From an uncultured candidate division WWE3 bacterium (GTDB lineage: Bacteria > Patescibacteriota > WWE3 > UBA101185 > UBA10185): a stretch of DNA of 64,000 bases. The stretch is from positions 361,441-425,440 of the forward strand of contig CAVXUZ010000005.1 in the NCBI GenBank assembly GCA_963765125.1, in the 5' to 3' direction. The notes beneath the pieces were generated by a model. The model made no database searches. It was not told the DNA's origin and saw only the letters and a program-made list of their open reading frames with translations. The translations under genes and the position numbers were made by a program. The first letter of the stretch is position 1. Each line of letters starts with the position of its first letter. Positions 17,183 to 63,799 of the stretch are shown here, piece after piece.

Positions 17183-20862
<3,680 letters not shown>

Positions 20863-20866
<4 letters not shown>

Positions 20867-23800: not shown

Positions 23801-24177
23801 TTGATGATAACTCTTTCTACTCCGTTTACTATAAAAGTACCTCTCTCTGTCATAAGAGGCATATCACCCATATATATTTTTTGTTCTTTTTTCTTTTTGC
23901 TGATTTGGTCTGAGAGGACTGCTTTTAAATACCAGGGGGCGTCGAATGTTCTTCCTGAATGAAGAGCCTCATCGACTGACATATTTTCTTTTTCAAATTC
24001 GGGATCTGATAGTGTTAAAACCCAACCTCTGCCTGAATAATCTTCAATAGTTCCGAGCTCGTCTAGGATCTCTTTAACGCCATCTTTTAAAAACCACGCA
24101 TATGACTCCAATTGGACGTCCATTAGATTGGGCAATGACAACTTGCTCTTAAGTTTTGAAAATGATTGGCGCATCAA
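20863..24177 (-). CDS. rpoB: DNA-directed RNA polymerase beta subunit. The N-terminal 825 codons are intact and the 3' roughly 840 nt is split by 3 frameshifts.
   Basis: Main ORF 21700-24177, then fragments 21495-21734, 21386-21619 and 20863-21489 carrying [15 protein letters not shown] and the acidic C-terminal tail. Confidence 0.9.
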
Positions 24178-46448: not shown

Positions 46449-49055
46449 ATGCTGTCATGTGAGAAAAATATTAGATATACTAAAATGGTGCTCGATATAC
46501 CACGATCGATTAGTAAATTCTTGGTCTGGTGGTTTTATACTGCCCCAAAAAAAATATACACAATATTCACACGAATATTGATTTTTGCAAATTACGAACT
46601 TTCTTTTACAGTAAACCTTAGGTTAATCTTTACACCGCTTTATGGCGACTACTCATTTATTGGAAGAATTATCGGTTTTTTCACAAGAATTATTTTTATT
46701 GTGTTTGGATTAGTTTTTATTGGCTTTCTAGGAATTGTAAGCATGCTAGCACCAATCGTCTGGTATCTGCTTTTACCATTTGCGTTCTATTATTTTGATT
46801 TTTGGTCAATACCTTTTGTTCTTGCGCTTTATATAGCTGTAACAATCAAAAAAGTTACAACACCTGACAAAAAGGTTTCTGAGGTAAAAAAAGAACAGGC
46901 CCTCGATTCTTTTAGACCCGACGTTAAAAGAAATTTTATGGATATTGTAGGAAAAGGCGCGTATTTTACAAACATTTTTCTACATAACCCACAAATTTCT
47001 TACTTACTAAATAAATCAGAAATGGCAAATAAAGGGCTTGAGGATAAGATTAGTAAAACTGAAATATTTGAGCAGAGTAAAATTCAAAATCTTGCATATG
47101 ACTTTGCCATCGAAAATAAATCAAAATATGTCGAAATGGAGCATCTATTTATGGCTGTTATTACAGCAATTCCTAATATTGAAACCATACTCTCTGGTTA
47201 TGGCTCAGAACTACGTCACTTGAAAGAAAGCGCATTTTGGATTGTCCAACGAAGAGACTTTTTGAACAGTATGTACTTTTGGCAAGATGACTACATCATG
47301 CCCCCAATGGGAGGATTTGGCCACGGCCTTACAGGCAGAGTTACTCCCCACCTTGATGCCATCTCTAGAGATTTTACAAAACTTGTTAAGAGAGGTTTAC
47401 TTCCAGATATTGTTGGGCGTGATCTTGAAGTCGGAAAAATAGCAAGTACTTTAGGTGGCGCAAACGAAAACATCTTAATTCTCGGTGAACCGGGTTGTGG
47501 AAAAACATCTCTCGTAATGGGTATCGCTCACAGAATAATGCATGGTACTGAATATAAATCACTTAGAAATAAAAGGATTGTGAGCTTAGAAATGGGTGGA
47601 TTAATTTCTGGCGCGAGGCACTCAGGAGAAGTTGCGTCTAAACTCAAACAAGCGCTAGATGAGGTAGTCGCCTCAAAAGATATAATTTTATTTATTGATG
47701 AAATACATAATCTTGTTTCCCCCGTCGATAACTCAGAAGATTTTTCAACGGTTTATTCAATCCTAGAACCATACCTCGCATCAAGCTCAGTACAATTTAT
47801 TGGTGCGACCAACCTTGAAAATTACAGAAAGTACATTGAGCCAATAGGTTCTTTTTCTAGACTATTTCAAATATTTGAGGTTCAAGAAGCTGACTTTACA
47901 TCGACATTAGAAATTCTAAAGCATCGTGCAATTAGAGACGAACGTAAATATGGCGTAGTTATAACAATTCCAGCCCTTTTTAAGATTATAAAACTCTCCG
48001 AAAAGCTAATTCACGATAGGGTGTTACCAGACAAAGCAATTGATATTTTAAATCGTGCAACAAATGAGGCACGAAGTACAGACAGGGTTGTGAGCGTAAA
48101 AATTATAGAAAAAATAATTACTGAGATGACTCGGGTGCCTGTCTCTGCAATTTCTGATGATGAATCAGAAAAATTACTAAACATAGAATCAGAAATGAAA
48201 AAAAGAGTAATCGGTCAGGATCATGCAATTATAAAAATTGCTAACGCTATAAAGCGCGCGAGAGTTGGTATAAGAGACGAAAACAAACCAATCGCAAGTT
48301 TCTTATTCGTTGGAACAACTGGTGTTGGAAAAACGGAAACTGCAAAAACCTTAAGCGAAACATATTTTGGTGATAAAAAAGCAATGGTGAGACTCGATAT
48401 GAGTGAGTATCAAAGCCCAGACAGCATCGATAAACTTATTGGAACCTCTGATGGAAAAACAAAAGGTATTCTTACTGAGCAAATTAGAACAAAACCATTC
48501 GTTGTTTTACTTCTCGATGAAATTGAAAAAGCACATCAGCAGGTTATGCTTACATTTTTACAGGTTTTAGACGATGCACGTCTCACAGATTCGTCAGGAA
48601 AAACCGTTGATTTCACAAATACAATCATCATCGCTACAAGTAATGTGGGAACTAAACAAATTCAAGAAATAACCCAACGAGGCGGTAGCTATGAAGAAAT
48701 AGAAGAGTCGGCAATGGCTGCGGTAAGGGATAAATTTGCGCCAGAGTTTCTTAACCGATTCACCGGAATCATTGTCTACAAGCCTCTTCAAATTGAAGAG
48801 GTAAGAAAAATCGCAAATATTATGCTTGCAAATGTAGTAAAAAGAACGCAGGAGAAAAAAATTAAAATTACATTTAGTGATGAATTGATTACTGAATTGA
48901 TAAAGCGAGGATTTAGTCCAGAGTGGGGTGCGAGACCTCTTGCAAGAACAATCGAAGAAAGTGTCGAAACCTACGTTGCAGAAAATATTCTTAAAAAAGA
49001 GTTTAAACAGGGTGACACAGTAACATTAGGTATGGAAATATTTTTAAAAAAATGA
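46449..49055 (+). CDS. membrane-anchored double-AAA+ Clp/Hsp100-family ATPase (ClpA-like, no M-domain, no IGF/IGL ClpP-docking loop)
   Basis: Residues about 20-135 form four hydrophobic helices. A Clp_N-like repeat follows. AAA1 has GEPGCGKTS and ILFIDEIH. AAA2 has GTTGVGKTE and VVLLLDEIEKAH. Confidence 0.7.
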   Translation: MLSCEKNIRYTKMVLDIPRSISKFLVWWFYTAPKKIYTIFTRILIFANYELSFTVNLRLIFTPLYGDYSFIGRIIGFFTRIIFIVFGLVFIGFLGIVSMLAPIVWYLLLPFAFYYFDFWSIPFVLALYIAVTIKKVTTPDKKVSEVKKEQALDSFRPDVKRNFMDIVGKGAYFTNIFLHNPQISYLLNKSEMANKGLEDKISKTEIFEQSKIQNLAYDFAIENKSKYVEMEHLFMAVITAIPNIETILSGYGSELRHLKESAFWIVQRRDFLNSMYFWQDDYIMPPMGGFGHGLTGRVTPHLDAISRDFTKLVKRGLLPDIVGRDLEVGKIASTLGGANENILILGEPGCGKTSLVMGIAHRIMHGTEYKSLRNKRIVSLEMGGLISGARHSGEVASKLKQALDEVVASKDIILFIDEIHNLVSPVDNSEDFSTVYSILEPYLASSSVQFIGATNLENYRKYIEPIGSFSRLFQIFEVQEADFTSTLEILKHRAIRDERKYGVVITIPALFKIIKLSEKLIHDRVLPDKAIDILNRATNEARSTDRVVSVKIIEKIITEMTRVPVSAISDDESEKLLNIESEMKKRVIGQDHAIIKIANAIKRARVGIRDENKPIASFLFVGTTGVGKTETAKTLSETYFGDKKAMVRLDMSEYQSPDSIDKLIGTSDGKTKGILTEQIRTKPFVVLLLDEIEKAHQQVMLTFLQVLDDARLTDSSGKTVDFTNTIIIATSNVGTKQIQEITQRGGSYEEIEESAMAAVRDKFAPEFLNRFTGIIVYKPLQIEEVRKIANIMLANVVKRTQEKKIKITFSDELITELIKRGFSPEWGARPLARTIEESVETYVAENILKKEFKQGDTVTLGMEIFLKK

Positions 49056-50861: not shown

Positions 50862-51599
50862 TTATTCGACATTGTTTTGACCAACTGTCTCTTCTAAAGG
50901 CCCCGCGTCACCAGAACCATCTAGCTCCTCAGTGGGTTTAAAAAGAGGCATTTCTTTTGTGGGCCTAAATATAATTGTCCTAATTATCTCGGTTTCCTTA
51001 TTCAGTTTGTTCACCGCCTTAACGCTTATTGTATTGATTCCTTCTCTGAGCTTGATTGAAGTTAAAAAGCTCCCGTCAGAATTATTGATAATCCTTTGAT
51101 TGTTAATAAAGACTTCAGAATCTAACTCAACACGTCCAGTGATATCCACAATATCGTTTTCAGAAAGCATGTTGTCTTCGGGGTAGAAAAGATCAAGAGA
51201 AGGTGCATCCGTATAGGCTTTATATTGAAAAAAGAGAAACGCAAAAAAACCACTCAAAAGCACAGCTGAAAAAATTGAAATTACCAAACCAGGCGTGATA
51301 ATAAATTTTTCTGGTTCTAGTGCCTTAATCTTAGTAAATTTTTCACCACGTTTATCCTCAAGTGAAGGCTCGTGCTCTCTCCTCCACAGCGCCATAATCT
51401 CTTCTTGGTCCAGTTCTAAGAATTCAGCGTAATTTTTTAAAAATCCCTTGGCGTGCACTCTTCCTTCAAACAAAGAGTAGTCATCGCTTTCAAGTGCTTT
51501 AATATATTTTGGATGAATTTTTATAGCACGGTTAACTTCTTCAATTGTATAACCATTACTTTTTCTTGCTGATAAAAGTAAACTACCTACACTTTTCAT
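50862..51599 (-). CDS. rodZ: RodZ-like cytoskeleton protein (HTH, TM helix, C-terminal DUF4115-like domain)
   Basis: N-terminal XRE-like HTH (GYTIEEVNRAIKIHPKYIKALE), one TM helix and a C-terminal beta domain. Confidence 0.6.
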   Translation of the reverse strand: MKSVGSLLLSARKSNGYTIEEVNRAIKIHPKYIKALESDDYSLFEGRVHAKGFLKNYAEFLELDQEEIMALWRREHEPSLEDKRGEKFTKIKALEPEKFIITPGLVISIFSAVLLSGFFAFLFFQYKAYTDAPSLDLFYPEDNMLSENDIVDITGRVELDSEVFINNQRIINNSDGSFLTSIKLREGINTISVKAVNKLNKETEIIRTIIFRPTKEMPLFKPTEELDGSGDAGPLEETVGQNNVE

Positions 51600-51607
51600 A
51601 TTTTATT

Positions 51608-53851
51608 CTACTCATCTAAATTAATTCTGGGGGCTTTAATATCGTTTGGAGCAGGAGGTAAACCATCATGCATGGGCATTGCTTCGCTTATTATTTCACG
51701 CGCTCTACTGCCCTGCGCGGTACCTATCACACCACTCTCTTCTAATTCATCGAGGATCCTCGCTGCACGTGCATAGCCTATCGAAAGTCTTCTTTGCAAC
51801 AAAGACGCAGACGCTCTCCCTGTACTTACAACTATATCTACCGCCTCGTCGTAATGCGGATCTTTTTTATCTCCACCTGCAGAAATACTTTTTCCGCTAT
51901 TATCGTCTTTCGGGTTCTCAATAATTTCTTCTTTGTACTCAGGAGGTACACCCTGTGATTTTAAGAAGTTTACCACTCTCGTAATTTCGTCATCGCGAAC
52001 AAACGCACCCTGAAGTCTAATAGGTGTTGGTTTGTCAGGAGGAACAAAAAGCATGTCTCCTTTTCCTAAAAGTTTTTCCGCGCCTGGCTGATCTATAATA
52101 ACTCTCGAGTCAACTTGCCCCGTCACATTGAAGGCAACCCTACAAGGTATATTTGCCTTAATTAAACCCGTTATAACGTCTGCTGAGGGCCTCTGGGCGG
52201 CTAAAACAAGGTGAATTCCGGTCGCTCTGGCTAGTTGGGCTAATCTTATAATATTTTTCTCAACAGCGTTTGGATCTGCAACCATAATCTCCCCCAACTC
52301 ATCGACAATAATGACAATATAGGGAAGTGCTTGAAAACCTGACTTTTCGTTATAAGCATCAATATTTCGAGCTTTTGCACTCTCTAAAAGCTTGTATCGC
52401 CTCGTCATCTCGGTTACCGCCCATTTAAAAACTGCAGGAGCCTTTTCCGTATCGGTTATTAAAGGAGTATAGAGATGTGGAATATCCGCGTAAGAGCTTA
52501 ACTCAACTCTCTTTGGATCGATCATAATAAGCTTTACTTCTTGAGGTGTAGCCCTAAAAAGAATTGAAAAAATAAGATTATGAATAAAGACAGATTTTCC
52601 TGAGCCTGTCGTTCCTGCGATAAGAAGGTGTGGCATTGTATTGATGTCGTAAATGTGAGTTATACCGCCAACATCCTTTCCTAGCACGATTTCGAGCTTA
52701 GATTTTGACGCCTTCATTTGATCTGATGAGATGAGAGATCTAAAGTCCACCTCTGCGCGTCTTCTGTTAGGCACCTCGATACCTATTAATGCTTTACCAG
52801 GAATAGGAGCTTCGATACGAACCGACCCCGTAGGTGACGCCAAAGCCAATGCTAAGTTTGACTGTAGGTTAGCGATTCTTGCCAGCTTAACCCCCGGTGG
52901 AGCTTGTAGAGCATACTTTGTGACCGCAGGGCCTACTTGCACATCTACAATCTCGACTGGTATATCAAACGAGTTTAACGTGTCTACTATAGTCTTTTTA
53001 TGTGCAGCCACGTCTCCTGTGTCAGGCGGCAAACCAGAGCCTTCAGAAAGTAAATCAATTGATGGTAACTCCCAAACTCTATCGGCATAAGGCAAATTTG
53101 ATGAAATTTTTGCAATATCAGATATGTCACTGTTCATCGCCGGCATGGCTCTAATATCAACGCCGGTCTGCGGTTCTGACATTGTAGGTACAATCTCAAA
53201 AGTAGGTTCGTCTGGAATATCTCCATGCGACTGTGAAATAACCTCGCCCTCTAAAGATTCGTCGGGCATTCCAGATGTTACTTCAACCTTATCACCTTCT
53301 TTTTTCTTTATTAAACCAACAATACTAAGTTTTTCGCGGTAAATCTCAACTGCTTTATCTATTGATATATCAAAAATTAAAATTACGGACATTATCAACA
53401 ATCCAGCAAGCAAAGCTACGCCACCGAATACGCTGAAGAGATTTCGCAAACCAAACCCCACCACGTAGCCGATAAACCCTCCTCCACCGCCGTTTATTGC
53501 CACTTCTTTTGACATTTCGGGTGAAATAAAAATATGAAATAATCCAGCAAGTGAAACCAATAAAATCACCAAACCAACAACAACTCTAAGCTCTTTTAAT
53601 CTTGTTTTAAAGGAGTCTATAAAAACTAATCCAATAACACCAGTTAGAAGCGGCAGGCCGAATGAGGCGTAACCAAGGGTTTTTCTAAAAACCAATTGAA
53701 TTTTTTCGTTTAAAAAGTAATGTGGGGCGATAAAGGAAATAATGGCTAAAATTGAGAATAAAAGCAGTAACACCGCAATAATTGACCTTGATGTCTCTGG
53801 GCTAATGTTAAAACTTACTTTGAATTTCTTTTTTCTCCCTCGCTTGGCCAT
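51608..53851 (-). CDS. ftsK: DNA translocase FtsK/SpoIIIE
   Basis: N-terminal TM helices, motor domain (GTTGSGKS, IVIVDE) and a winged-helix gamma domain. Confidence 0.95.
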   Translation of the reverse strand: MAKRGRKKKFKVSFNISPETSRSIIAVLLLLFSILAIISFIAPHYFLNEKIQLVFRKTLGYASFGLPLLTGVIGLVFIDSFKTRLKELRVVVGLVILLVSLAGLFHIFISPEMSKEVAINGGGGGFIGYVVGFGLRNLFSVFGGVALLAGLLIMSVILIFDISIDKAVEIYREKLSIVGLIKKKEGDKVEVTSGMPDESLEGEVISQSHGDIPDEPTFEIVPTMSEPQTGVDIRAMPAMNSDISDIAKISSNLPYADRVWELPSIDLLSEGSGLPPDTGDVAAHKKTIVDTLNSFDIPVEIVDVQVGPAVTKYALQAPPGVKLARIANLQSNLALALASPTGSVRIEAPIPGKALIGIEVPNRRRAEVDFRSLISSDQMKASKSKLEIVLGKDVGGITHIYDINTMPHLLIAGTTGSGKSVFIHNLIFSILFRATPQEVKLIMIDPKRVELSSYADIPHLYTPLITDTEKAPAVFKWAVTEMTRRYKLLESAKARNIDAYNEKSGFQALPYIVIIVDELGEIMVADPNAVEKNIIRLAQLARATGIHLVLAAQRPSADVITGLIKANIPCRVAFNVTGQVDSRVIIDQPGAEKLLGKGDMLFVPPDKPTPIRLQGAFVRDDEITRVVNFLKSQGVPPEYKEEIIENPKDDNSGKSISAGGDKKDPHYDEAVDIVVSTGRASASLLQRRLSIGYARAARILDELEESGVIGTAQGSRAREIISEAMPMHDGLPPAPNDIKAPRINLDE

Positions 53852-53871
53852 TAATCCTATAATATCAAGCT

Positions 53872-55566
53872 TTAGATAAAAATGGAATGCACAATGATTA
53901 GGGGTGTTCTACCTGTTTCTTTTTCTAAAAACTTTTGTACGTTCTTTTCGATTTTTATTTTTACTTCATTCCACTCTTCAATAATATTTGGGTTTTTATC
54001 CAAAACTTTATTTACAATATCTCGAGATTTGCCCAATAAAGCTTTCGATTCTTTAACGTATATAAAACCGCGAGTTACAACGTCGACCGGCCCGGCTAAT
54101 TGCCTTGATTCTTTATAAACGGGTACAACAATAACAAAAACACCGTCGGTTGATAAAAGTGCACGATCTTTCACAACAAGTGGGTTTAAACCAATTCCAT
54201 CGTAAAACATATCTTTGACCTCAATCTTTTCTCCTCTAGTTGCCACGCCGTTTTTAAATTCAACAACGGCGCCTTCGCTAAGTTCGTAAACGCTGCCCTT
54301 ATTAACACCCAAGTCATAAATCATATTCGCATAAGCTCTCATATGAATAAGTCCACCACCAATAGGTATGTAGTATTTTGGTTTGACAGTTAGCGCCATC
54401 TTCGACAGCTCTTCACGATGGCCATGCCCAGACACATGCAAATGCTCCATATTCGTATGATCGTAAACCTCAGCCCCAGCCATAATTAAATTTTCTGTCA
54501 TTCTCTCAACAGCTATATCAACACCAGGAGGGTTGGGTTCGGAAGAAAAAACAACAACGGCATCCTGCTCTAAAACAATATCTCTATGTTCTCCGCGACT
54601 AACTCTATCTAATGACGAACCTTGCTGACCAAAACATCCTGCGATTATATAAACAACCGAGTGCTGATCGTAATCTTGCGCTTCCTTTTGATCCATGTAG
54701 ACATCTTGAGGAAACTTTAAATATCCTAAATTTGTTGCAATTTTTATAGTTGAATCGATCGAACGCCCTGATGGAACTACTTTTCTCCCAGCTTTTATTG
54801 CAGCATCGATAATTTGGTGCATACGTGAAATATTTGATGAGATTGTCGTTATTAAAACCTGTCTACCTTCAAAGCGTTCAAATAACTTTGGAAATGTTTC
54901 AGACAGTGTTGATTCTGAGGCCACACCACCCGCAGAGCGAGAGCCTAAGCAGTCAGAAGCCATCATTAAAACTCCGTCTTTGCTCAATTCGGCAACTCTA
55001 TTTAAATCTAATGGCTTATCAATTACTGGGTTTTCATCAATCTTGTAATCTGCGATGTGAAGCAGCCTACCCTCAGGTGTGTCAATCACTATCCCTAAAG
55101 AATCTGGTACGGAGTGGTTAACATTAAATGCTGAAACTTTAAATACCCCAATCTGTACTGGAGGTGTAGTAGCATCAAAAAGATGAAATTTTGTTGATTC
55201 TTTGAGAGATTTGAATTCTTTTTCTTCAAACTGCTCTTTAATAAAGGCTTGAGTAAGCTTATTTGCATAAACTGGTACGTTAAATTCTTTTAATAGATAA
55301 GGAACGGCAGCAAAGTGATCCGCATGTGCGTGGCTGATAAAAAGCGCTTTAAATCTGTGTGAATTTTCTAGCAAGTACGTGTTATCGGGAATAATAAAAT
55401 CAACGCCAAAGTCATCACTTTCAGGAAAACCAATACCGTAGTCAACAGCAATCAAGTCATCGCCATACTCATAAACTGAAAGATTTTTTGTAACCCCGTC
55501 GCCAATCGCAATGAACTTTAAAACCTTATTATCAACCTGTTTATCTGTATTTGAGAAAAACGCCAT
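53872..55566 (-). CDS. rnj: ribonuclease J (metallo-beta-lactamase/beta-CASP)
   Basis: FISHAHADHFAAVPYL motif. 564 aa. Confidence 0.9.
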   Translation of the reverse strand: MAFFSNTDKQVDNKVLKFIAIGDGVTKNLSVYEYGDDLIAVDYGIGFPESDDFGVDFIIPDNTYLLENSHRFKALFISHAHADHFAAVPYLLKEFNVPVYANKLTQAFIKEQFEEKEFKSLKESTKFHLFDATTPPVQIGVFKVSAFNVNHSVPDSLGIVIDTPEGRLLHIADYKIDENPVIDKPLDLNRVAELSKDGVLMMASDCLGSRSAGGVASESTLSETFPKLFERFEGRQVLITTISSNISRMHQIIDAAIKAGRKVVPSGRSIDSTIKIATNLGYLKFPQDVYMDQKEAQDYDQHSVVYIIAGCFGQQGSSLDRVSRGEHRDIVLEQDAVVVFSSEPNPPGVDIAVERMTENLIMAGAEVYDHTNMEHLHVSGHGHREELSKMALTVKPKYYIPIGGGLIHMRAYANMIYDLGVNKGSVYELSEGAVVEFKNGVATRGEKIEVKDMFYDGIGLNPLVVKDRALLSTDGVFVIVVPVYKESRQLAGPVDVVTRGFIYVKESKALLGKSRDIVNKVLDKNPNIIEEWNEVKIKIEKNVQKFLEKETGRTPLIIVHSIFI

Positions 55567-55581
55567 TATCTAGTAAGTCTA

Positions 55582-56199
55582 TCAGAAGAGGCTCATTTGT
55601 CCATCGTTCAAGATGGGCTCTGAGTGCTCCTGATTTAAATTATTAATACTTTCTAAAACCTTTGGAATATTCATAAAATCACTTTTTAAATCTGCAAGCA
55701 TAGTTGGATTTCTTAACCCTGCTGCCGGATGGTACACAGGGTAAATATTTCTTCCATTAATTTTTATTAAATGCCCTCTGTCTCTGGAAATTTTCCCGTC
55801 AGGGTAAAAGTAATTCATCGCGTATCTGCCTAAAGTTACAATTAGTTTTGGGTTGATGATTTTTATTTGCATAGCCAAGTACGGAGAGCACGCTGTAACC
55901 TCATCGGGCAATGGGTCACGATTTTCTGGCGGACGGTGCTTGATAATATTTCCAATCCAAACGTCGGTCCTTTTAAGTCCAATCTTTTCTAAAAGCGCAG
56001 TGAGAAGATTACCAGCGCGGCCCACAAACGGTCTCCCTGTTTCGTCCTCGGTAGCCCCAGGAGCCTCACCTATAAACATGATTTCTGTTGTGTTACTCCC
56101 CTCACCAGGCACAGGATTTTTTGCCGTCTCATATAATCTGCATTTTTTGCAAAGGGAAATATTTCTTTCAATATCAACTAAAAGTTCGGTGTTTGTCAT
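55582..56199 (-). CDS. family-4 uracil-DNA glycosylase
   Basis: [23 protein letters not shown] motif with an N-terminal Cys cluster. Confidence 0.85.
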
Positions 56200-56744
56200 T
56201 CAATTAAACCTAGCGTTTGTAGCGTGTTTAGAATTTTGATTGTTATTCTTCTCTTACCCTTTTGGTACATTCTATCTGCAATAAAATAGGCTTCTCTAAA
56301 CGACATCCAAAAATTCTCGTCGTAAACAGTTTTTGATAAGTCTATTTTTTCAGTTGGGGCAGTGATAACACAAAAAATATAATCTTTACCAATCATTTGA
56401 ATATCTTTACCGCTATCATCTTTCAACTCTGCCATTTCATGCCTTCCTGGTTTAAACTCCATTCTGTCTAATCCTGCATAAATGATGTTTTTAAAATCTA
56501 ATCCCGTTACAAATTCTGCACCTAATTCTTCGATTAAATTTCTTGAAAGCGCGTCGGCTATTTTTTCTTTATTGTTAATCCCACCTTGAGGTAACATCCA
56601 CAACTTATACTCTTCTTTAAAAAACATAAGAATTTTTTTATTGTGAATGACGCACGCGACAACTCCCGGCCTAAAGCCTTCGTTTCTAATTTTATTTAAT
56701 TCTTCAAGTGTTGGCTCTGTTATAGCCTTTATTTGTTCTTCCAT
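56196..56744 (-). CDS. Nudix-family hydrolase (slightly degenerate Nudix box)
   Basis: [22 protein letters not shown] approximates Gx5Ex7REUxEExGU. Confidence 0.5.
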
Positions 56745-56748
56745 AATT

Positions 56749-57843
56749 TTATTCTGGTAAATAATGCTTAAGATTCTCTGACGTCAAATGAACTTGCGTT
56801 ACTGAACCTTCAACAATCTGCTTTGCCACTTTTCTACAAATAGCCTCTAAAGTTCTTCCTAAGCTTCTGATACCGCTGTCATAACCAAAAGGTCTCACTA
56901 TACTTGGCCAGAGAGATTCATCCACTAACAACTCCCCTGGCTTTAAGCCTGAATTTTCAAAGATTTTCGGTAAAAGATAATTTTTTGCGATTACTAATTT
57001 TTCGTGATCTGTGTATGAAGGCATTTTTATTACCTCCATTCTGTCCATTAACGCTGCAGAAATTGTACCAACGTTGTTTGCCGAACAAATAAAAAGCACC
57101 TGCGACAAATCAACTGGAAAATCAACGTAATGATCCCTAAATTCATGGTTTTGGTTAGGATCCAATATTTCGAGCAAAATTGCCATTACGTCACTTAACA
57201 AACCTTTTTCTCCGCTCGCCTTTTCAATTTCGTCTAACAAAATTACAGGGTTCATAACTTGGGTTTTTAACAAAGCTTTAACGATTTGACCAGGTTCAGC
57301 TTCGGGATAAGTTTTACTTTTACCTCTTAATTCTAATGTTGAGCCAATTCCTCCCATGGCAATTCTTACAAACTGTCTACCTAAAGCCTTAGCAATAGAG
57401 ATCGCAAGAGTGGTTTTACCTACACCTTGCAAACCTGTAAAAAGCAATACGGGAGTTTTTGCAAACATGTCACCGCCGCGATCTTTAATCAAGATGAGCG
57501 TTGAAAGATATTCTAAAATTCTTTCTTTAACATAGTCCATCCCGTAATGAGAAGCGTCGAGCAAACCACGGGCCTCTTTTAAATCGAGTTTATCAACCGT
57601 TGATTTACTCCAAGGAATTTTTGCAACAGTCTCAACATAGCGTGAAATATTATCAAACTCAGAAGAGTAATGACCAAGTTGTGCCATCCTATTCAACCTT
57701 CTGAGCATCTGCCTTAGTCTATCTTCAAGAAGGGGAGGAACGCCGGCTATTTCATCTACAGTTTTTGAGAGAGCAACGAGCTCTTCAAAAATGAAGTCGT
57801 CGTTTGAAGCTACTGATTGTTCTTTATAGTCTTGATTACTCAT
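56749..57843 (-). CDS. Lon-derived AAA+ ATPase module lacking the N-terminal LON substrate domain and the entire protease domain
   Basis: Collinear with the LonA ATPase (GLQGVGKTT, VILLDEIEKAS, sensor-2 region ...GIRSLGRTLEAICRKVA). The ORF ends where the Ser-Lys protease domain would begin. Starts inside the Lon pre-AAA helical linker. Confidence 0.7.
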   Translation of the reverse strand: MSNQDYKEQSVASNDDFIFEELVALSKTVDEIAGVPPLLEDRLRQMLRRLNRMAQLGHYSSEFDNISRYVETVAKIPWSKSTVDKLDLKEARGLLDASHYGMDYVKERILEYLSTLILIKDRGGDMFAKTPVLLFTGLQGVGKTTLAISIAKALGRQFVRIAMGGIGSTLELRGKSKTYPEAEPGQIVKALLKTQVMNPVILLDEIEKASGEKGLLSDVMAILLEILDPNQNHEFRDHYVDFPVDLSQVLFICSANNVGTISAALMDRMEVIKMPSYTDHEKLVIAKNYLLPKIFENSGLKPGELLVDESLWPSIVRPFGYDSGIRSLGRTLEAICRKVAKQIVEGSVTQVHLTSENLKHYLPE

Positions 57844-58870
57844 TTTTTCTTATTACAAACTTATCTAATTTCTTTGAAATTGGCTCCTCTAGCATTTTAA
57901 CAACCTCATCAGAAGGATTAAAGGACATCATTAAATTGTAGATGTTTTCTGGTGCTACATTAAATATCATCATAACTAGCTGGCCGTCTGGAGGTAAAAA
58001 GGCAGAAAAGCTACTATATTTTTGGTTATGTGTAATATTTTTTGCTGCACCTTGAGCTGATTTGTTTATCGCATCAAAAAATGCCTCGTATTTGGTGATA
58101 ATGACGATATTTTCAACTAATTCCAACTGATAATCACCATCCTGAAGCTTTACTTTTACAAAGTCATCTTCGACGACACTGCTTGGTTCCTCAGTTGTTT
58201 CTTTTACATCTAGTACTTCCTCGGTTCCATCCTCTAAAATTGCGTCCTTAGCCTCTTTCAGTACAGAGTTAACTTCAAGGGCTTGCGCCTCATCGGGGTA
58301 AACTTCTGCAATAAGCGCGTATTGCCAACCGTTTTCAACCATTTTTCCGTAAATTGCAAACCTATCGTTTAGTGTAATACCAAATCTTTCTTTAACATTG
58401 AGTTGTTGGTCATCTTGCGCATTAAATTTTGTTAAAAATTCATCAAAATTGCTACCCTCAACAAAAAAATCTGCATCCTCAGGGACAAAACGAGTGAGTT
58501 CTTTTATTCCAAAAACAAAATTAGCATCCTTAAGCCCTGCGTCAATTGTATTATTGTAAATAATCCTTTTTGTCTGCACTGGCTGGTCAATTGCTTTTTT
58601 CTTTTGTGCGGCGACAAGCTTCGTCAGAAAAATTGCTAATAGCGAAATTAGAACAAATCCAGCAATAATCACCAAAGCGATTTTTACATTTTTGTTAAAA
58701 GAAAACTCAAACTTAATTTTTTTCTTGTTTGGTGAAAATCTAGATTTTTTTGGATTAAAAGAAGCCGTATGTAAAACTAAATAGTCATCAAGCTTATAAC
58801 CACAATTAGAACAAAAGTAGTTATCGCTATCTTTTAGTGAAACATTACAATGTGGGCAGATTCTCTTCAT
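57836..58870 (-). CDS. zinc-ribbon (CxxC...CxxC) single-pass membrane protein with acidic extracytoplasmic domain, translationally coupled to the Lon-like ATPase
   Basis: N-terminal CPHC...CSNCG, one TM helix, about 250-aa ectodomain. 8-nt overlap with the downstream gene. Confidence 0.4.
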   Translation of the reverse strand: MKRICPHCNVSLKDSDNYFCSNCGYKLDDYLVLHTASFNPKKSRFSPNKKKIKFEFSFNKNVKIALVIIAGFVLISLLAIFLTKLVAAQKKKAIDQPVQTKRIIYNNTIDAGLKDANFVFGIKELTRFVPEDADFFVEGSNFDEFLTKFNAQDDQQLNVKERFGITLNDRFAIYGKMVENGWQYALIAEVYPDEAQALEVNSVLKEAKDAILEDGTEEVLDVKETTEEPSSVVEDDFVKVKLQDGDYQLELVENIVIITKYEAFFDAINKSAQGAAKNITHNQKYSSFSAFLPPDGQLVMMIFNVAPENIYNLMMSFNPSDEVVKMLEEPISKKLDKFVIRKNE

Positions 58871-58886
58871 CTACAAAATTTTACCA

Positions 58887-61118
58887 TCAATTTTGCCTAT
58901 TGTTATATCTTTGTGGTCGATCTCCACGGTCACCTCTTGGGCCATGACCGCCTCTACCACTTCGATCGTTTGGTCTTCCACCAAACCTAGGTCTTGGCTC
59001 TCGGTGCTGATCAGCACCTTCTTCTAATATTTTCTTTGAAAGACTGATCTTACCGTCTCTTGAAACCTCGAGAACTTTAACCTTAACGGTGTCTCCTGCT
59101 TTTAGAAACTTGCTTGCATCGTCAACATATTCATTAGATATTTCGCTTATGTGAAGAAGTCCATTTTTTCCTGGAAGAATTTCTACGAAAGCGCCAAATT
59201 CTACTACTTCTTCGACAACACCGTCGTATATTTCGCCAGGCTCAATGTCTTTTACAAGATTTGCAACAATGCTCGCTGCTTTTTCGACATTCTCTTTGAT
59301 TATGCCTGATACAACAACTGTTCCATCGTCGTCAATCGCAATCTCTGTGTTTGTCTTTTCTTGAATTTCTTTTATTGTCTTTCCACCTGAACCGATAACT
59401 AATCCAATTTTATCTGGGCTAATCATTACGGTTGCTGATTTTGGAGCATAGACTGAAACTTCTGCGCGTGGCTTAGAAATTGTGGCTTCCATAACATCCA
59501 AAACATGTGCGCGTCCTTCTTTAGACTGTTCAATTATTTTTGGTAAAAGTTCAAAAGGTATACCTTTCGACTTCATATCACATTGAATTGCGGTCACACC
59601 TGTTCTAGTACCTGTCATTTTAAAGTCGAGAAGTCCAAATGCGTCTTCCATATAGGCAAGGTCGGTCATTATTAAATGCTTTTTAAAGCCCTCGTCTGCT
59701 ATTAAACCAACGCCAATTCCTGCAACCATATCTTTAATAGGTACACCAGCGTCCATTAACGCGAGTGTTGAACCACATGTTGACGCCATTGAAGTTGAGC
59801 CACTAGATGACATAGTTTCAGAAACCAGCAATATCATGTAAGGAAAGTCCTTTTGTGAAGGTATAACTGGTCTTAAACCATTTTCTGCGATCATCCCATG
59901 ACCGATTTCTCGATTTTTTGGGTATCCAATCTTACCTGTTTCTCCACTCGAGAAAGGAGGAAAATTGTAGTAATGTAAAAATTTCTTTGAAGACTCGCCG
60001 TACATATCTTGTACGAGTAATTCGCTCGAAGGAGAACCTAGGGTGGCAATTGTCATTACCTGCGTAAGTCCTCTTGAAAAAAGCGCGCTTCCGTGAGTTC
60101 TTGGTAAAACACCTACTTCTGCTGAAAGCGGTCTTATTTCTTTAATTTCTCTTCCATCTGGGCGTTTTCCCGTCTCGAGAATCATACTTTGCATAGTATA
60201 CTTCTTTATTAGTTCGACGACAGACAACATATCTACTTTTTTGTACTTTCCTTCAAGACCTGTGGTTACTTCTTCATTAATTTGTGAGAGTAAAAGTTGC
60301 ATCTCATCTTTATCGAGATTTTTTTGCATTGCTTCTTTTATTCTTGCGCCAGCAATTTTTTCAACATCGTTGTAGATTTCTTCACTTGGTTTTGTTGATG
60401 TGTAAGTATATTTTTCATTATTAGGATTTACTTCTTTAGCAAAGTCGTTGATAAAGTCAAAAAGTGGTCCTGTGTTTTCTCTTGCGAAATCAACAGCAGC
60501 CATAATTTTCTCTTCGGGTAATATGTTAGCTTCAGCTTCTAATGCTAAGAAGCGTCTATCATCACCAACAAAAGAAACTATCATATCAAGTTCGCTCTTA
60601 TTATGAAGAACATCTTTGCTAGGGCAAAGCGCGAAATTGCCATCAACGTAACCCAATCTTATTGAGGCCATAGGCCCAGCCCATGGAATATTAGAAGCAT
60701 GAAACGCAGCTGAAGCCGCGATCATACTTAAAAATCTTGGGTCAGCGTCCTGATCAAGTGATAAAACAGTTACTACTAACTGAACTTCATCGCTAAAGTC
60801 GCTTGGAAACAAAGGTCGAACAGCGTGGTCAATAACACGCCCTGCAATAATTGCATCGTCTGAACCTTTACCATCTCTTTTTTGGAATCTGGAATTTTTT
60901 ATTAAACCACCAGCATAGTACTTTTCAAGATATACGATATTGAGAGGAAAATAATCGCTCTCTGGATCGTATCCACCTGAAACTACCGTTACGAGAAGTA
61001 CAGTATCACCATAAGTGGCTTTTACTGACATGTTTGTCATCGTTGCGAGCTTTCCTGTTTCCAACGTTAATTTTCGACCTGCAAACTCAATCTCTTTATA
61101 TATTATATTTTTATTCAT
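58887..61118 (-). CDS. pnp: polyribonucleotide nucleotidyltransferase (PNPase)
   Basis: 743 aa with two RNase PH domains, KH and S1, and an Arg/Gly-rich tail. Confidence 0.97.
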   Translation of the reverse strand: MNKNIIYKEIEFAGRKLTLETGKLATMTNMSVKATYGDTVLLVTVVSGGYDPESDYFPLNIVYLEKYYAGGLIKNSRFQKRDGKGSDDAIIAGRVIDHAVRPLFPSDFSDEVQLVVTVLSLDQDADPRFLSMIAASAAFHASNIPWAGPMASIRLGYVDGNFALCPSKDVLHNKSELDMIVSFVGDDRRFLALEAEANILPEEKIMAAVDFARENTGPLFDFINDFAKEVNPNNEKYTYTSTKPSEEIYNDVEKIAGARIKEAMQKNLDKDEMQLLLSQINEEVTTGLEGKYKKVDMLSVVELIKKYTMQSMILETGKRPDGREIKEIRPLSAEVGVLPRTHGSALFSRGLTQVMTIATLGSPSSELLVQDMYGESSKKFLHYYNFPPFSSGETGKIGYPKNREIGHGMIAENGLRPVIPSQKDFPYMILLVSETMSSSGSTSMASTCGSTLALMDAGVPIKDMVAGIGVGLIADEGFKKHLIMTDLAYMEDAFGLLDFKMTGTRTGVTAIQCDMKSKGIPFELLPKIIEQSKEGRAHVLDVMEATISKPRAEVSVYAPKSATVMISPDKIGLVIGSGGKTIKEIQEKTNTEIAIDDDGTVVVSGIIKENVEKAASIVANLVKDIEPGEIYDGVVEEVVEFGAFVEILPGKNGLLHISEISNEYVDDASKFLKAGDTVKVKVLEVSRDGKISLSKKILEEGADQHREPRPRFGGRPNDRSGRGGHGPRGDRGDRPQRYNNRQN

Positions 61119-61235
61119 TTTTTTATTTTTGGGATACTAAGCAGTAGACGATTAAGAACTGAGATATTTCTTACGAAAAATCATAAAGAATATTCCATTT
61201 CCTAATCTCTTGTACAAATTCTCCCGACTAATTAA

Positions 61236-61505
61236 TTACTTGTTAATGTCCAACTTTTCGAGAAGACTATTATATCTCTCCTCGTCTTTACGCTTTAGAT
61301 AAGCCATAAGTCTTCTTCTTTTATTTACCATCTGTAAAAGACCTCTTCTAGAGTGATTGTCCTTTTTGTGTTTTTTGAGATGGTCAGAAAGCGAAGCTAT
61401 TTTTTCGCTTAGCAAACTAATTTGGACCTCAGGCGAACCAGTATCACTTGCGTGTACCTGTGTATCCTTTATTATCTTTTGCTTTTTATCTTTATCTAGC
61501 GCCAT
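61236..61505 (-). CDS. rpsO: 30S ribosomal protein S15
   Basis: 89 aa from the internal Met, helical S15 family. Confidence 0.9.
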
Positions 61506-61552
61506 AATCATTGTACATCTTACCAAACTAAGCCCACTAAATCAACCTCCAA

Positions 61553-62215
61553 TTAGTCCCTATGTTGCGGTTCTTTTAGTGTTATTCCCTTCAATATAGC
61601 CTTTGCAGCTCTCTCGCTTGGTTTTATTCCCCATCTTGGTGCTCTTTGCAAAACTAGTAAACTTAAGCTGGCTGCATCGTGCTCAATTGCGTTTATAAAG
61701 CCAAATCTTTCGTTTGCACCTGAATTATCGATGTTTACTATTCTAGAAAGCTTGGAATTTGAATCCAACATCTCATAAGAAGAGCCTAAATCTTCAATCG
61801 ACTGCGCACCAACTCCAAAGATTAGATCAAAGTCGTACCCTGTAATTTTTGCGGTTACACGCAAATCTTTTTCAAAATCTGCGGGAATTGGTTGAATTTT
61901 TAGAGTAAGAACCCCGTCGTCAGTGTTGTAATGTACTTTTGAAGCATCGGTGTCAGCATAATCTATTGAAACCACTAAACTCCTGTCGCCGATGTCTTTT
62001 GTAACAAGCTCATCTTTTATTATTCCCTCTGTGTCTTTTGGCTGTTTTCCTGGGTAGATGAGGGTTACATTCTTTTCTTGCTCCTTTAACATATAGTAAA
62101 GAGCCACGCTTGCACAAAATGCGTCTGCCCCAGCAACCTTCGAAGGTATGATTGCAATGTTATTCGACTCCTCAATTAAAGACTGGACTCTGTCTTTGTG
62201 ATTTTCTTCTTTCAT
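61553..62215 (-). CDS. DHH-family-like protein with degenerate catalytic motifs (NrnA-like N-domain only)
   Basis: N-terminus resembles the NrnA DHH domain, but the DHH triad reads DNS and no DHHA1 domain is present. Occupies the rbfA/truB slot between infB and rpsO. Confidence 0.4.
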   Translation of the reverse strand: MKEENHKDRVQSLIEESNNIAIIPSKVAGADAFCASVALYYMLKEQEKNVTLIYPGKQPKDTEGIIKDELVTKDIGDRSLVVSIDYADTDASKVHYNTDDGVLTLKIQPIPADFEKDLRVTAKITGYDFDLIFGVGAQSIEDLGSSYEMLDSNSKLSRIVNIDNSGANERFGFINAIEHDAASLSLLVLQRAPRWGIKPSERAAKAILKGITLKEPQHRD

Positions 62216-62262
62216 AGATAGATTTTGGGCGGGTTATTTATACTTTAATTTTTTACTTTGGG

Positions 62263-62291
62263 ATTATACCGTAACAACCCTATAGCGTCAA
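62263..62291 (-). promoter_or_regulatory. sigma70-like promoter (TTGACG-N17-TATAAT) upstream of the DHH-like, rpsO and pnp genes
   Basis: Reverse complement of 62286-62291 is TTGACG and reverse complement of 62263-62268 is TATAAT. Confidence 0.5.
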
Positions 62292-62308
62292 CCTCGGGGG
62301 TTACATTC

Positions 62309-63799
62309 TTACAAAACCTCGATCCACATCTCTTTTTGAACGTCCTCAAACTGCGGTCTGATCAACAATCCGCACTCTTTTCCTTTGCCTATATCTTCAA
62401 CTTCATCCTTCTCAACTTTAATTTTCTTGATTGCACCCATATACAGTGCCTCTGATCTTATGTCTTTTACATCAGCAGGGTTCTTATCAAAGATAGCAAT
62501 GCGGTTTTTTTCCTTTAATCGGCCTAATTCAACATTGCAACCTAGTATTCTGTCCCCTGATTCAAGCTTAAATATCTTTATTATTTGAGCGCGTCCTTTT
62601 ACCTTTTTCTCTTCAGACAACGCAGTGCCCTCAAGAAGATTGCTAACCTCGTCGATTAAGTCGTAGATTGTGCTGTAGGACCTCACAACTACCCCAGATT
62701 CTCTTGCTAAGTCGTTGATAAAACTCGAAACCTTAACATTAAAACCCAAAACCAAACCGTCACCGCTTTGTGCTAGAGCAATATCTGAGTCAGTAACTTC
62801 TCCTGTGGATGTAAGCAAGAATTTGATAGAAAAGGTTAGGCCAGCCCCAGATGTTAGCAACTCTGCCAAACTCGCCTTTACCGCCTCTAAGGTACCTTGG
62901 GTGTCAGCTTTAAGCACTATTGAAACAACTTTACTTGTATCCTTGCCGATTATCTCTTCTCTCGTTTCGTCGAGGGCTAAAGATGCGAGTTCGCTTCCTT
63001 CTTGGACTATTAAATCACCAACATTTGGAACTTCTTTAAACCCTGTGATTTCAATCGGTGTGCTTGGAACAGCCTCTTGTAAGAGTCTACCTTTATCATC
63101 CATCATAGATCTAATCTTTGCTGTATGCCCACTCGCAGTTACCTTATCACCAACATGCAGTGTTCCTGCTTTTATTATGCAGGTCACAACTACACCTTTT
63201 TTTACATCTTTTTTTGACTCAATAATGGTTCCTTCGATTTCTGCGTCTGGGAGATCCCTAAGTTCTAATAATTCAGCAACAGCTAGTATCGCGTCGAGAA
63301 GCTTGTCGAGATTTGTTTTTTGTTTTGCTGAGACTTCAATACAAACTATGTTTCCACCCCAATCCTCAACCAATATATTTTCTTGAGCGAGCTGCTGTTT
63401 TGCTTTTTGGGTATCTGCTGCAGGTAAATCAATTTTGTTTACAACAACAATAATCTGGGCACCTGATGCTTTTGCGTGTGCTATTGCCTCTCTTGTTTGT
63501 GGCTGAACACCTGAATCGGCTGCCACTACAAGTACAACAATATCTGCAACTCTGCCACCTCTTGCACGCATTTGAGAAAACGCTGCATGTCCTGGTGTAT
63601 CAATAAATGTAATTTTTTGGTTATTATGGATAATTTGGTAAGCGCCAATATGCTGAGTAATTCCTCCGTATTCGCCTAGCTGTACTTTGGTGTTTCTTAT
63701 TGCGTCGAGAATACTGGTTTTACCATGATCAACATGGCCCATGACCGTGACAATTGGAGGTCTATATTCATGTGTTTCAGTATTTTTTTTGTTTTGCAT
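62309..63799 (-). CDS. infB: translation initiation factor IF-2 (short form, G-domain starts at residue about 15)
   Basis: [16 protein letters not shown] and NKID motifs. Confidence 0.95.
   Translation of the reverse strand: MQNKKNTETHEYRPPIVTVMGHVDHGKTSILDAIRNTKVQLGEYGGITQHIGAYQIIHNNQKITFIDTPGHAAFSQMRARGGRVADIVVLVVAADSGVQPQTREAIAHAKASGAQIIVVVNKIDLPAADTQKAKQQLAQENILVEDWGGNIVCIEVSAKQKTNLDKLLDAILAVAELLELRDLPDAEIEGTIIESKKDVKKGVVVTCIIKAGTLHVGDKVTASGHTAKIRSMMDDKGRLLQEAVPSTPIEITGFKEVPNVGDLIVQEGSELASLALDETREEIIGKDTSKVVSIVLKADTQGTLEAVKASLAELLTSGAGLTFSIKFLLTSTGEVTDSDIALAQSGDGLVLGFNVKVSSFINDLARESGVVVRSYSTIYDLIDEVSNLLEGTALSEEKKVKGRAQIIKIFKLESGDRILGCNVELGRLKEKNRIAIFDKNPADVKDIRSEALYMGAIKKIKVEKDEVEDIGKGKECGLLIRPQFEDVQKEMWIEVL

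Follow-up and report, generated by a model that had tools for sequence, protein, structure and literature searches.

Can the ATPase module of Lon persist as a conserved protein in its own right, without the domains that flank it in the LonA protease? The question is raised by a gene in a 64,000-nucleotide stretch of DNA from an uncultured candidate division WWE3 bacterium (assembly GCA_963765125.1, contig CAVXUZ010000005.1, positions 361,441 to 425,440 of the forward strand), referred to here as the window. The gene, labelled LonAAA, encodes a Lon-like ATPase and is overlapped by an upstream gene, labelled ZnTM, for a zinc-ribbon membrane protein; each label serves for both gene and protein. 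A first-pass annotation made from the sequence alone had drawn attention to the pair and proposed that it might form a membrane-associated remodelling module or a defence-like module. We find that LonAAA is a Lon by descent and by fold, and that it belongs to a monophyletic, LonA-derived family spread across the Patescibacteria (candidate phyla radiation, CPR), whose members have lost the N-terminal substrate-binding domain and the Ser-Lys protease domain and have kept the AAA+ large domain with the three-helix bundle before it and the Lon-type lid. What we chiefly report is this protease-less family; the partnership with the zinc-ribbon protein is a lead at the level of one clade, and a membrane-associated remodelling module is possible. 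Labels of the form L0xx denote the homologous loci that we compared, and P0xxx homologous proteins.

The domain content of LonAAA was established by profile, structure and alignment. Pfam returned only AAA (PF00004, 1.3e-19) and Lon_lid (PF22667, 8.4e-11), with no match to LON_substr_bdg and, as the first-pass annotation had expected, none to Lon_C. The NCBIfam model for endopeptidase La, TIGR00763, aligned over positions 269-571 of its 795 with 341.8 bits, under its cutoff of 608.05, and the E. coli-type model PRK10787 aligned over positions 252-579 of 784. The best solved relative was B. subtilis LonA (3m6a, 1.8e-80), collinear over query residues 25-362, and residues 249-579 of E. coli Lon (6u5z) also align to LonAAA. 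An AlphaFold model (predicted local distance difference test score, pLDDT, 88.6) superposes on the ATPase modules of LonA and LONP1, the most complete Foldseek match being to 6n2i, an AAA+ fragment of E. coli Lon (TMq 0.84, TMt 0.90). Residues 20-75 are the C-terminal part of the LonA HI(CC) domain, the three-helix bundle from which the E. coli Lon alignment begins. In the domain nomenclature of PMC6722904, LonAAA is the C-terminal three-helix part of HI(CC) followed by the NB and H domains, and nothing else. Its last residues, KHYLPE, align to the 'YLG' linker between the AAA+ and protease domains of Lon. The profiles, the 3m6a alignment and this C-terminus all agree with the claim that the reading frame follows the LonA ATPase module and stops at the protease boundary. 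No hydrophobic segment was found in LonAAA; the transmembrane (TM) helix of the pair sits on the separate ZnTM protein. Of five LonA-family features tested, one was present, the AAA+ module with a Lon-type lid (seen by Pfam and by the fold match to LonA and LONP1), and four were missing: a protease domain, an N-domain, a score above the curated cutoff and the pore-loop motif of Lon. The NCBIfam models for LonB and sporulation Lon did not match. An origin in a different AAA+ clade, which the first-pass annotation had kept in view, was rejected, since models for Clp, RuvB and RFC proteins reached at most 41 bits versus 342 for Lon, and LonAAA is nested among LonA proteins by sequence, profile and fold.

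So short a protein could be an artefact, either of a sequencing frameshift that cut a full-length lon or of a decaying pseudogene. A check of all reading frames mattered here because the assembly does hold broken genes, rpoB and rpoC carrying several frameshifts and in-frame stops. Queries for tblastn were the first 300 and the last 230 residues of eight full-length Lons; they revealed no similarity to the N-domain or the protease domain in any frame of the window or of 36 short-form loci from a species-level genome scan. This excludes a frameshift, including the downstream out-of-frame Lon_C segment that the first-pass annotation had allowed for. In addition, all 120 of the closest homologues in a database of 5.8 billion proteins share the short architecture (352-385 residues, 65-80% identity) and originate in many separate assemblies; the neighbouring genes leave no space, and the catalytic motifs are all invariant. 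The uniformly short homologues and the negative all-frame search refute an artefact, to which we give a negligible probability.

The family extends well beyond these close relatives. An exhaustive search of a 50%-identity representative library found about 20 further protease-less representatives at 39-59% identity. Some of them have P/Q-rich, disordered extensions, up to 330 residues long, at the N- or C-terminus, and every representative lacks a protease domain and a Lon N-domain as well as a TM segment and a zinc ribbon. When 129 Lon AAA modules were placed in a neighbour-joining tree over 335 columns, all 29 protease-less sequences fell into one split that holds no full-length Lon (bootstrap 91/100), a pattern indicating that both flanking domains were lost once, in an ancient event. 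Named members belong to WWE3, Chisholmbacteria, Nomurabacteria, Saccharimonadales and the 'Patescibacteria group'; PGAP annotates members as 'AAA family ATPase', and many JGI entries read 'ATP-dependent Lon protease'.

The representative search was led by four proteins from outside the window, P0124, P0127, P0128 and P0130, only because several stretches of each match. These are Lon proteases of about 1000-1100 residues. Each combines an N-terminal TM segment and a single C-terminal protease domain with two or three Lon-type AAA+ modules in tandem, a motor arrangement that is unusual for Lon.

We next consider what such a protein might do. The ATPase motifs (Walker A and B, sensor-1, arginine finger and sensor-2; Table 1) are all intact and essentially invariant, with K143, D204/E205, N256, R268 and R326 unchanged in 35 homologues. 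Conservation of the arginine finger, which acts in trans, suggests that the ATPase works as an oligomer. Pore-loop 1 is altered: the family consensus is RGxS[KR]xxP[DE]AEPG versus RGHRRTY[IV]GAMPG in Lon, and the window copy, RGKSKTYPEAEPG, has TYPE, not TY[IV]G. Among the 120 close homologues, position 179 is F in 71, Y in 31 and L in 16 (118/120 together), the residue after it is P in 109, and E183 is present in 118; E183, P184 and G185 are nearly invariant. In distant family members position 179 is often Q, N, S, H, K or R, and about half of these proteins are non-aromatic there. The substrate-gripping loop has thus turned acidic and, across the family, is only partly aromatic. The change from Y-[IV]-G-A-M-P-G to [FY]-P-E-A-E-P-G suggests a grip or a client class different from that of Lon.

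Our preferred reading, which we consider fairly probable, is that LonAAA is a stand-alone hexameric unfoldase or remodeller from this LonA-derived CPR family that does not itself degrade its clients. Given its arginine finger and the way in which the E. coli fragment packs in crystals, LonAAA would assemble into a Lon-like hexameric ring. The ring would spend ATP to unfold, extract or remodel clients without degradation of its own, as a chaperone- or unfoldase-type 'Lon motor'. Proteolytically inactive Lon can still promote the assembly of mitochondrial complexes, which makes a chaperone-only Lon biologically plausible. Several points weigh against this reading. In LonA the protease ring supplies much of the hexamer interface, so a stable ring without it is an assumption. 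Loss of the pore-loop aromatic in about half of the distant members makes a pure polypeptide-threading model less convincing when applied to the whole family. Finally, neither a protease-less Lon nor Lon in CPR bacteria was found described in the full-text literature, the coverage of which was incomplete, so that this is no proof of novelty.

The main rival to a motor that acts without proteolysis is a split Lon, in which the ATPase and a protease subunit encoded elsewhere, for example a stand-alone Lon_C/S16 peptidase, rebuild an ATP-dependent protease. Elsewhere AAA+ proteases are as a rule two-component, as in ClpXP and HslUV, LonAAA ends exactly at the AAA/protease linker, and the aromatic or bulky hydrophobic pore-loop residue of 118/120 close homologues fits translocation into a chamber. 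However, neither the 64-kb window nor the 6-10 kb around the gene in more than 45 loci of diverse lineages contains a Lon_C gene. A docking motif is not conserved at the C-terminus, where the tails vary (YLPE, VQAW, IQMY, LPDQGPLS), and we rejected an HbYX-like one for this reason; docking to ClpP was likewise rejected, as there is no IGF-type loop inserted relative to Lon. In P0149 and P0158, long disordered C-terminal tails would sit between ring and peptidase. We judge a split Lon to be unlikely and continue with LonAAA as an unfoldase that works on its own.

Gene order and rates of evolution bear on two further alternatives. In about 30 of the 36 loci the genes run IF2, DHH-like, rpsO, PNPase, ZnTM, LonAAA, (Nudix), family-4 uracil-DNA glycosylase (UDG), RNase J, FtsK and a helix-turn-helix (HTH) protein. 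Taking the median identity of each window protein to its WWE3-like orthologues, LonAAA (69%) is second in the block to rpsO (75%) and is followed by UDG (63%), IF2 (62%), PNPase (61%), FtsK (55%), Nudix (53%), RNase J (52%), the DHH-like protein (46%) and ZnTM (25%). By this measure LonAAA behaves as a core gene under strong purifying selection, and the first-pass view of the locus as something other than a standard housekeeping arrangement did not survive the comparison.

The suggested defence-like module fared no better. As a defence or mobile-element module, the Lon-like ATPase and a membrane sensor would be analogous to BREX BrxL-type or other AAA+ defence proteins, and the unusual domain loss, the adjoining membrane protein and the nearby Nudix and UDG genes could all be read in that way. 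PADLOC, however, gave only generic AAA matches for LonAAA (the best to DolB, at 31 bits) and no match for ZnTM, and the GC content of the window, 34-41%, has no island signature. The locus is fixed in a block of core genes in about 30 genomes; such a housekeeping block, together with slow evolution like that of rpsO, a translation gene, argues against defence. Core synteny, PADLOC and conservation effectively refute this alternative, which we hold to be highly improbable.

In distant CPR lineages the synteny of the block is partly kept. The order is rpsO, PNPase, LonAAA, RNase J in L047; LonAAA, RNase J, FtsK in L045; a DUF3352 protein, LonAAA, RNase J in L049; and rpsO, PNPase, then after a gap a DUF4012 protein, LonAAA, PilM/FtsA and, further on, FtsK in L051. 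Two M16 peptidase genes and an M23 peptidase gene flank LonAAA in L050, the M16 genes lying at some remove and M23 next to it, and the context in L052 is unrelated. In one distant lineage, represented by L053:1344-2949 and L048:203-1808, LonAAA is divergent from groES and a chaperone neighbourhood replaces PNPase and RNase J; the gene after groES is probably groEL.

This distribution might be taken to mean that LonAAA is a nucleic-acid-linked ATPase, a motor acting on RNA-decay, ribosome or DNA-repair complexes such as RNase J/PNPase assemblies or basic ribosomal proteins. LonAAA lies between PNPase and RNase J, whether or not Nudix and UDG genes intervene, in the WWE3-like loci and in several distant CPR lineages, and an acidic pore loop would suit basic clients. 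Lon itself binds DNA, and 6n2i was deposited as 'DNA-binding ATP-dependent protease La'. The linkage is nevertheless lost in L050, L052 and L053, and Pfam detected no nucleic-acid-binding domain in LonAAA. Moreover, adjacency to pnp, rnj and ftsK may be merely inherited, because their order resembles what we take to be an old syntenic block also present in Bacillus. We regard a nucleic-acid-linked role as improbable, and the stand-alone unfoldase remains the reading that we carry forward to ZnTM.

ZnTM has the anatomy that the first-pass annotation gave it, a zinc ribbon, a TM helix and an acidic ectodomain, and it does overlap LonAAA by 8 nt. Between ribbon and helix lies a disordered basic linker, and the ectodomain is of alpha/beta type. 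The model has a mean pLDDT of 69, with most ectodomain blocks at 75-88. Part of the acidity comes from an insert of about 35 residues (roughly residues 200-233) that is unique to the ZnTM ectodomain of this genome. The zinc ribbon is the only well-conserved part, with a mean pairwise identity of 46% versus 15-21% elsewhere, and C5, P6, C8, F19, C20 and C23 are invariant in 24 sequences. The only other C4 protein in the window is ribosomal protein S14.

Within the WWE3-like clade the two genes stay together. ZnTM adjoins LonAAA in all 23 loci with a full-length ZnTM, and the spacing, calculated from a mechanical longest-ORF (open reading frame) start for LonAAA, is -22 to +26 nt in 21 of them; in L011 and L043 the start lies 83 nt and 101 nt downstream, respectively. 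Four ZnTM homologues that were found in metagenomes independently of Lon all occupy the same slot. Shortened forms keep the position as well. At L023:5691-5945 the zinc ribbon alone (about 48 residues from an internal Met) is encoded directly upstream of LonAAA with an 8-nt overlap. At L025:3734-4033 a 99-residue protein consisting of zinc ribbon and TM helix is encoded directly upstream, and PNPase is gone from the block.

A number of observations weigh against a link between the two proteins. ZnTM evolves fast, with a median identity of 25% versus 69% for LonAAA; a profile search of a large database produced only 11 ZnTM homologues; and the adjacency of PNPase and ZnTM is as conserved as that of ZnTM and LonAAA. 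Distant CPR lineages lack a CxxC...CxxC protein upstream of LonAAA. The partner is absent from L031, L032, L047, L050, L052 and L053, and in the first three of these the slot is empty. In L028, L030, L033, L049 and L051 it is filled by other membrane proteins, among them two large bitopic envelope proteins, a DUF3352 protein (L049:3-1325, 47 bits) and a DUF4012 protein (L051:8133-9995, 94 bits). Comparison of slot proteins with ZnTM by hhalign gave no significant similarity (E 0.058 for L028, 0.36 for L033 and 0.009 over 52 columns for L049), and the hidden Markov model score of the L051 protein against ZnTM was a weak 16.6 bits; these are weak hints of a remote similarity of the DUF3352 and DUF4012 proteins to the ZnTM ectodomain. 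Lastly, no ZnTM-LonAAA fusion occurs among the family representatives that were read, their N- and C-terminal extensions being only disordered and of low complexity.

The ZnTM-LonAAA pairing is therefore confined to the WWE3-like clade and is not a family-wide requirement: of the co-occurrence that the first-pass annotation had proposed to follow up, the part within this clade held throughout, and CPR lineages further away either lack the partner or have another protein in its place. In six lineages a bitopic envelope protein is encoded immediately upstream of LonAAA in the same direction. Such recurrence is suggestive of a link to LonAAA, with two confounding factors: synteny may be inherited, and proteins of this kind are abundant in CPR bacteria. 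From sequence comparison, a functional partnership of ZnTM and LonAAA is possible. In the WWE3-like clade LonAAA would be co-transcribed with this fast-evolving bitopic envelope protein, whose cytoplasmic zinc ribbon could serve as tether, adaptor or client of the LonAAA ring. That the ribbon tethers the ring to the membrane, adapts or presents clients to it, or is itself a client in WWE3 is a tentative proposal, to which we give somewhat less than an even chance.

A bolder version combines these elements, and we think it unlikely to be right as a whole. Patescibacteria would have made Lon into a protease-free, two-part, membrane-proximal unfoldase, with an entry bundle and an AAA+ ring whose acidic pore loop takes new, possibly basic clients; in WWE3 the zinc ribbon of ZnTM would replace the N-domain in trans and couple events at the ectodomain to ATP-driven remodelling inside the cell. 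If true, this would be the first natural 'Lon chaperone', possibly the sole Lon relative in these minimal cells.

Table 1. Positions of LonAAA, ZnTM, their parts and the surrounding genes in the 64-kb window.
Feature	Residues	Position	Strand	Remarks
IF2		62309-63799	minus	
DHH-like protein	220 aa	61553-62215	minus	Label is a guess from operon position
rpsO		61236-61526	minus	
PNPase		58887-61118	minus	Conserved upstream neighbour
ZnTM	344 aa	57836-58870	minus	N-terminal C4 zinc ribbon, disordered basic linker, one TM helix, alpha/beta ectodomain
ZnTM zinc ribbon, CPHC (5-8)...CSNC (20-23)	5-23	58802-58858	minus	Pfam Zn_Ribbon_1
ZnTM TM helix	62-86 (approx.)	58613-58687	minus	Hydropathy and model helix H60-95
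ZnTM ectodomain	C-terminal 258	57839-58612	minus	Net acidic, 46 D+E versus 28 K+R
Acidic core of ectodomain insert	213-236	58163-58234	minus	
ZnTM/LonAAA overlap		57836-57843	minus	8 nt, ATGAGTAA; LonAAA start codon inside ZnTM end
LonAAA	364 aa	56749-57843	minus	LonA-derived AAA+ ATPase, three-helix bundle to end of lid
Three helices before AAA+ domain	20-75	57619-57786	minus	Model helices H20-30, H37-56, H60-75
Walker A, GLQGVGKTT	137-145	57409-57435	minus	G137, G140, G142, K143, T144, T145 invariant in 35 homologues
Pore-loop 1	173-185	57289-57327	minus	Altered relative to Lon
Walker B, VILLDEIEK	200-208	57220-57246	minus	
Sensor-1 FICSANN and arginine finger MDRME	251-257 and 266-270	57034-57093	minus	N256, D267, R268 invariant
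Sensor-2, GIRSLGR	324-330	56854-56874	minus	In Lon-type lid
LonAAA C-terminus, ...KHYLPE and stop		56749-56769	minus	Aligned to Lon 'YLG' AAA/protease linker
Nudix hydrolase		56196-56744	minus	PF00293, 27.2 bits versus cutoff 21.1
Family-4 UDG		55582-56199	minus	TIGR00758, 188.8 bits, above cutoff 125.3
RNase J		53872-55566	minus	Conserved downstream neighbour across CPR lineages
FtsK		51608-53851	minus	
RodZ-like HTH protein		50862-51599	minus	

The genes listed in Table 1 are tightly packed. Junctions across the block are all equally tight (-4 to +20 nt), Nudix starting 5 nt downstream of LonAAA, and the 8-nt overlap of ZnTM and LonAAA is not distinctive because every gene in the block is packed as closely. 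Scans for promoters and terminators gave counts at chance level, with no terminator inside the block, and no Shine-Dalgarno sequence was recognisable in the 25 nt upstream of the start codons of the 11 block genes (11/11; 51599-63799, minus strand). The nearest relatives of the window are candidate division WWE3 and other Patescibacteria. The Nudix and UDG genes that the first-pass annotation placed downstream are both there by profile match (Table 1). In the Nudix box the canonical 'RE' of REUXEE is 'RN', RppH-type models match only weakly (at most 34 bits, far under their cutoffs), and only about one in two related loci has the gene.

Three further observations concern other parts of the window. 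The 220-residue DHH-like protein has no Pfam match and lies between infB and rpsO in nearly all related loci; distant CPR bacteria have a form of 280-380 residues in the same place. A second AAA+ protein (46449-49055, plus strand) is an 868-residue, two-ring Clp/Hsp100 ATPase with AAA, AAA_lid_9, AAA_2 and ClpB_D2-small domains. The broken rpoB and rpoC genes occupy 17183-24177 (minus strand), and the rest of the window looks intact. In rpoB (24177 to 20863) about 70 stop-rich codons follow residue 825, after which the original frame resumes; the coding sequence of rpoC is scattered across the three frames and contains a minimum of 4 frameshifts and 3 in-frame stops. This pattern points to local assembly errors, strain chimerism or something unusual in essential genes.

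A natural, conserved Lon motor without a protease would be a ready system for separating the unfolding or chaperone activity of Lon from proteolysis, and its altered pore loop a natural experiment relating AAA+ pore chemistry to client choice. The conservation of the LonAAA sequence suggests an important function in organisms with genomes of about 0.5-1 Mb. Such a motor would also call for a different reading of 'Lon protease' annotations in CPR genomes when proteostasis and metabolism are reconstructed.

Among known systems the closest is LonA (endopeptidase La), as in E. coli Lon, B. subtilis LonA and human LONP1. LonAAA shares with it the bundle of three helices, the large AAA+ domain and the lid of Lon type, with 38-45% identity over the module, and Walker A and B, sensor-1, arginine finger and sensor-2 that are identical in kind. 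It differs in lacking the N-terminal LON substrate-binding domain, the coiled coil and the Ser-Lys protease domain, in pore-loop 1 ([FY]PEAEPG rather than Y[IV]GAMPG), and in a 3-residue insert in the bundle and a 2-residue insert after Walker B. By the usual definition Lon is an ATPase joined to a protease of its own, and a 2022 classification describes all Lon chains as an A domain and then a P domain (PMC9569914). The E. coli Lon fragment 235-584 (6n2i) has near-identical boundaries, being made up of HI(CC)'s C-terminal portion and the whole AAA+ module; it binds ADP, and in crystals its packing gives an open helical hexamer (PMC6722904). That fragment, however, is a laboratory product of limited proteolysis of the full-length protease, and LonAAA is its natural, conserved, stand-alone counterpart.

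The remaining comparisons turn on the anchor, the protease and the zinc module. ClpX, an unfoldase of the HCLR clade, can act as a chaperone without ClpP. It too goes with a C4 zinc module, fused in that case to the ATPase, whereas here the zinc ribbon is on a separate membrane protein; and ClpX docks ClpP through IGF loops, of which LonAAA has no counterpart, its homology being to Lon and not to ClpX. Like LonAAA, B. subtilis 'LonB' (LonBA, the ATPase of which is LonA-like; PMC9569914) and archaeal LonB lack the LonA N-domain, and those Lons work at the membrane. If ZnTM tethers LonAAA, the pair would resemble LonB and LonBA in location, with the difference that LonB and LonBA carry the anchor in the same chain along with a protease domain, whereas the candidate anchor of LonAAA is a separate gene and there is no protease. 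The opposite case is LonC, as in MtaLonC (PMC3391209) and other Lon-like proteases with a degenerate ATPase, where the two Lon activities are likewise naturally uncoupled. LonC kept the protease and lost ATP-powered unfolding, whereas the LonAAA family has kept the ATPase and lost the protease.

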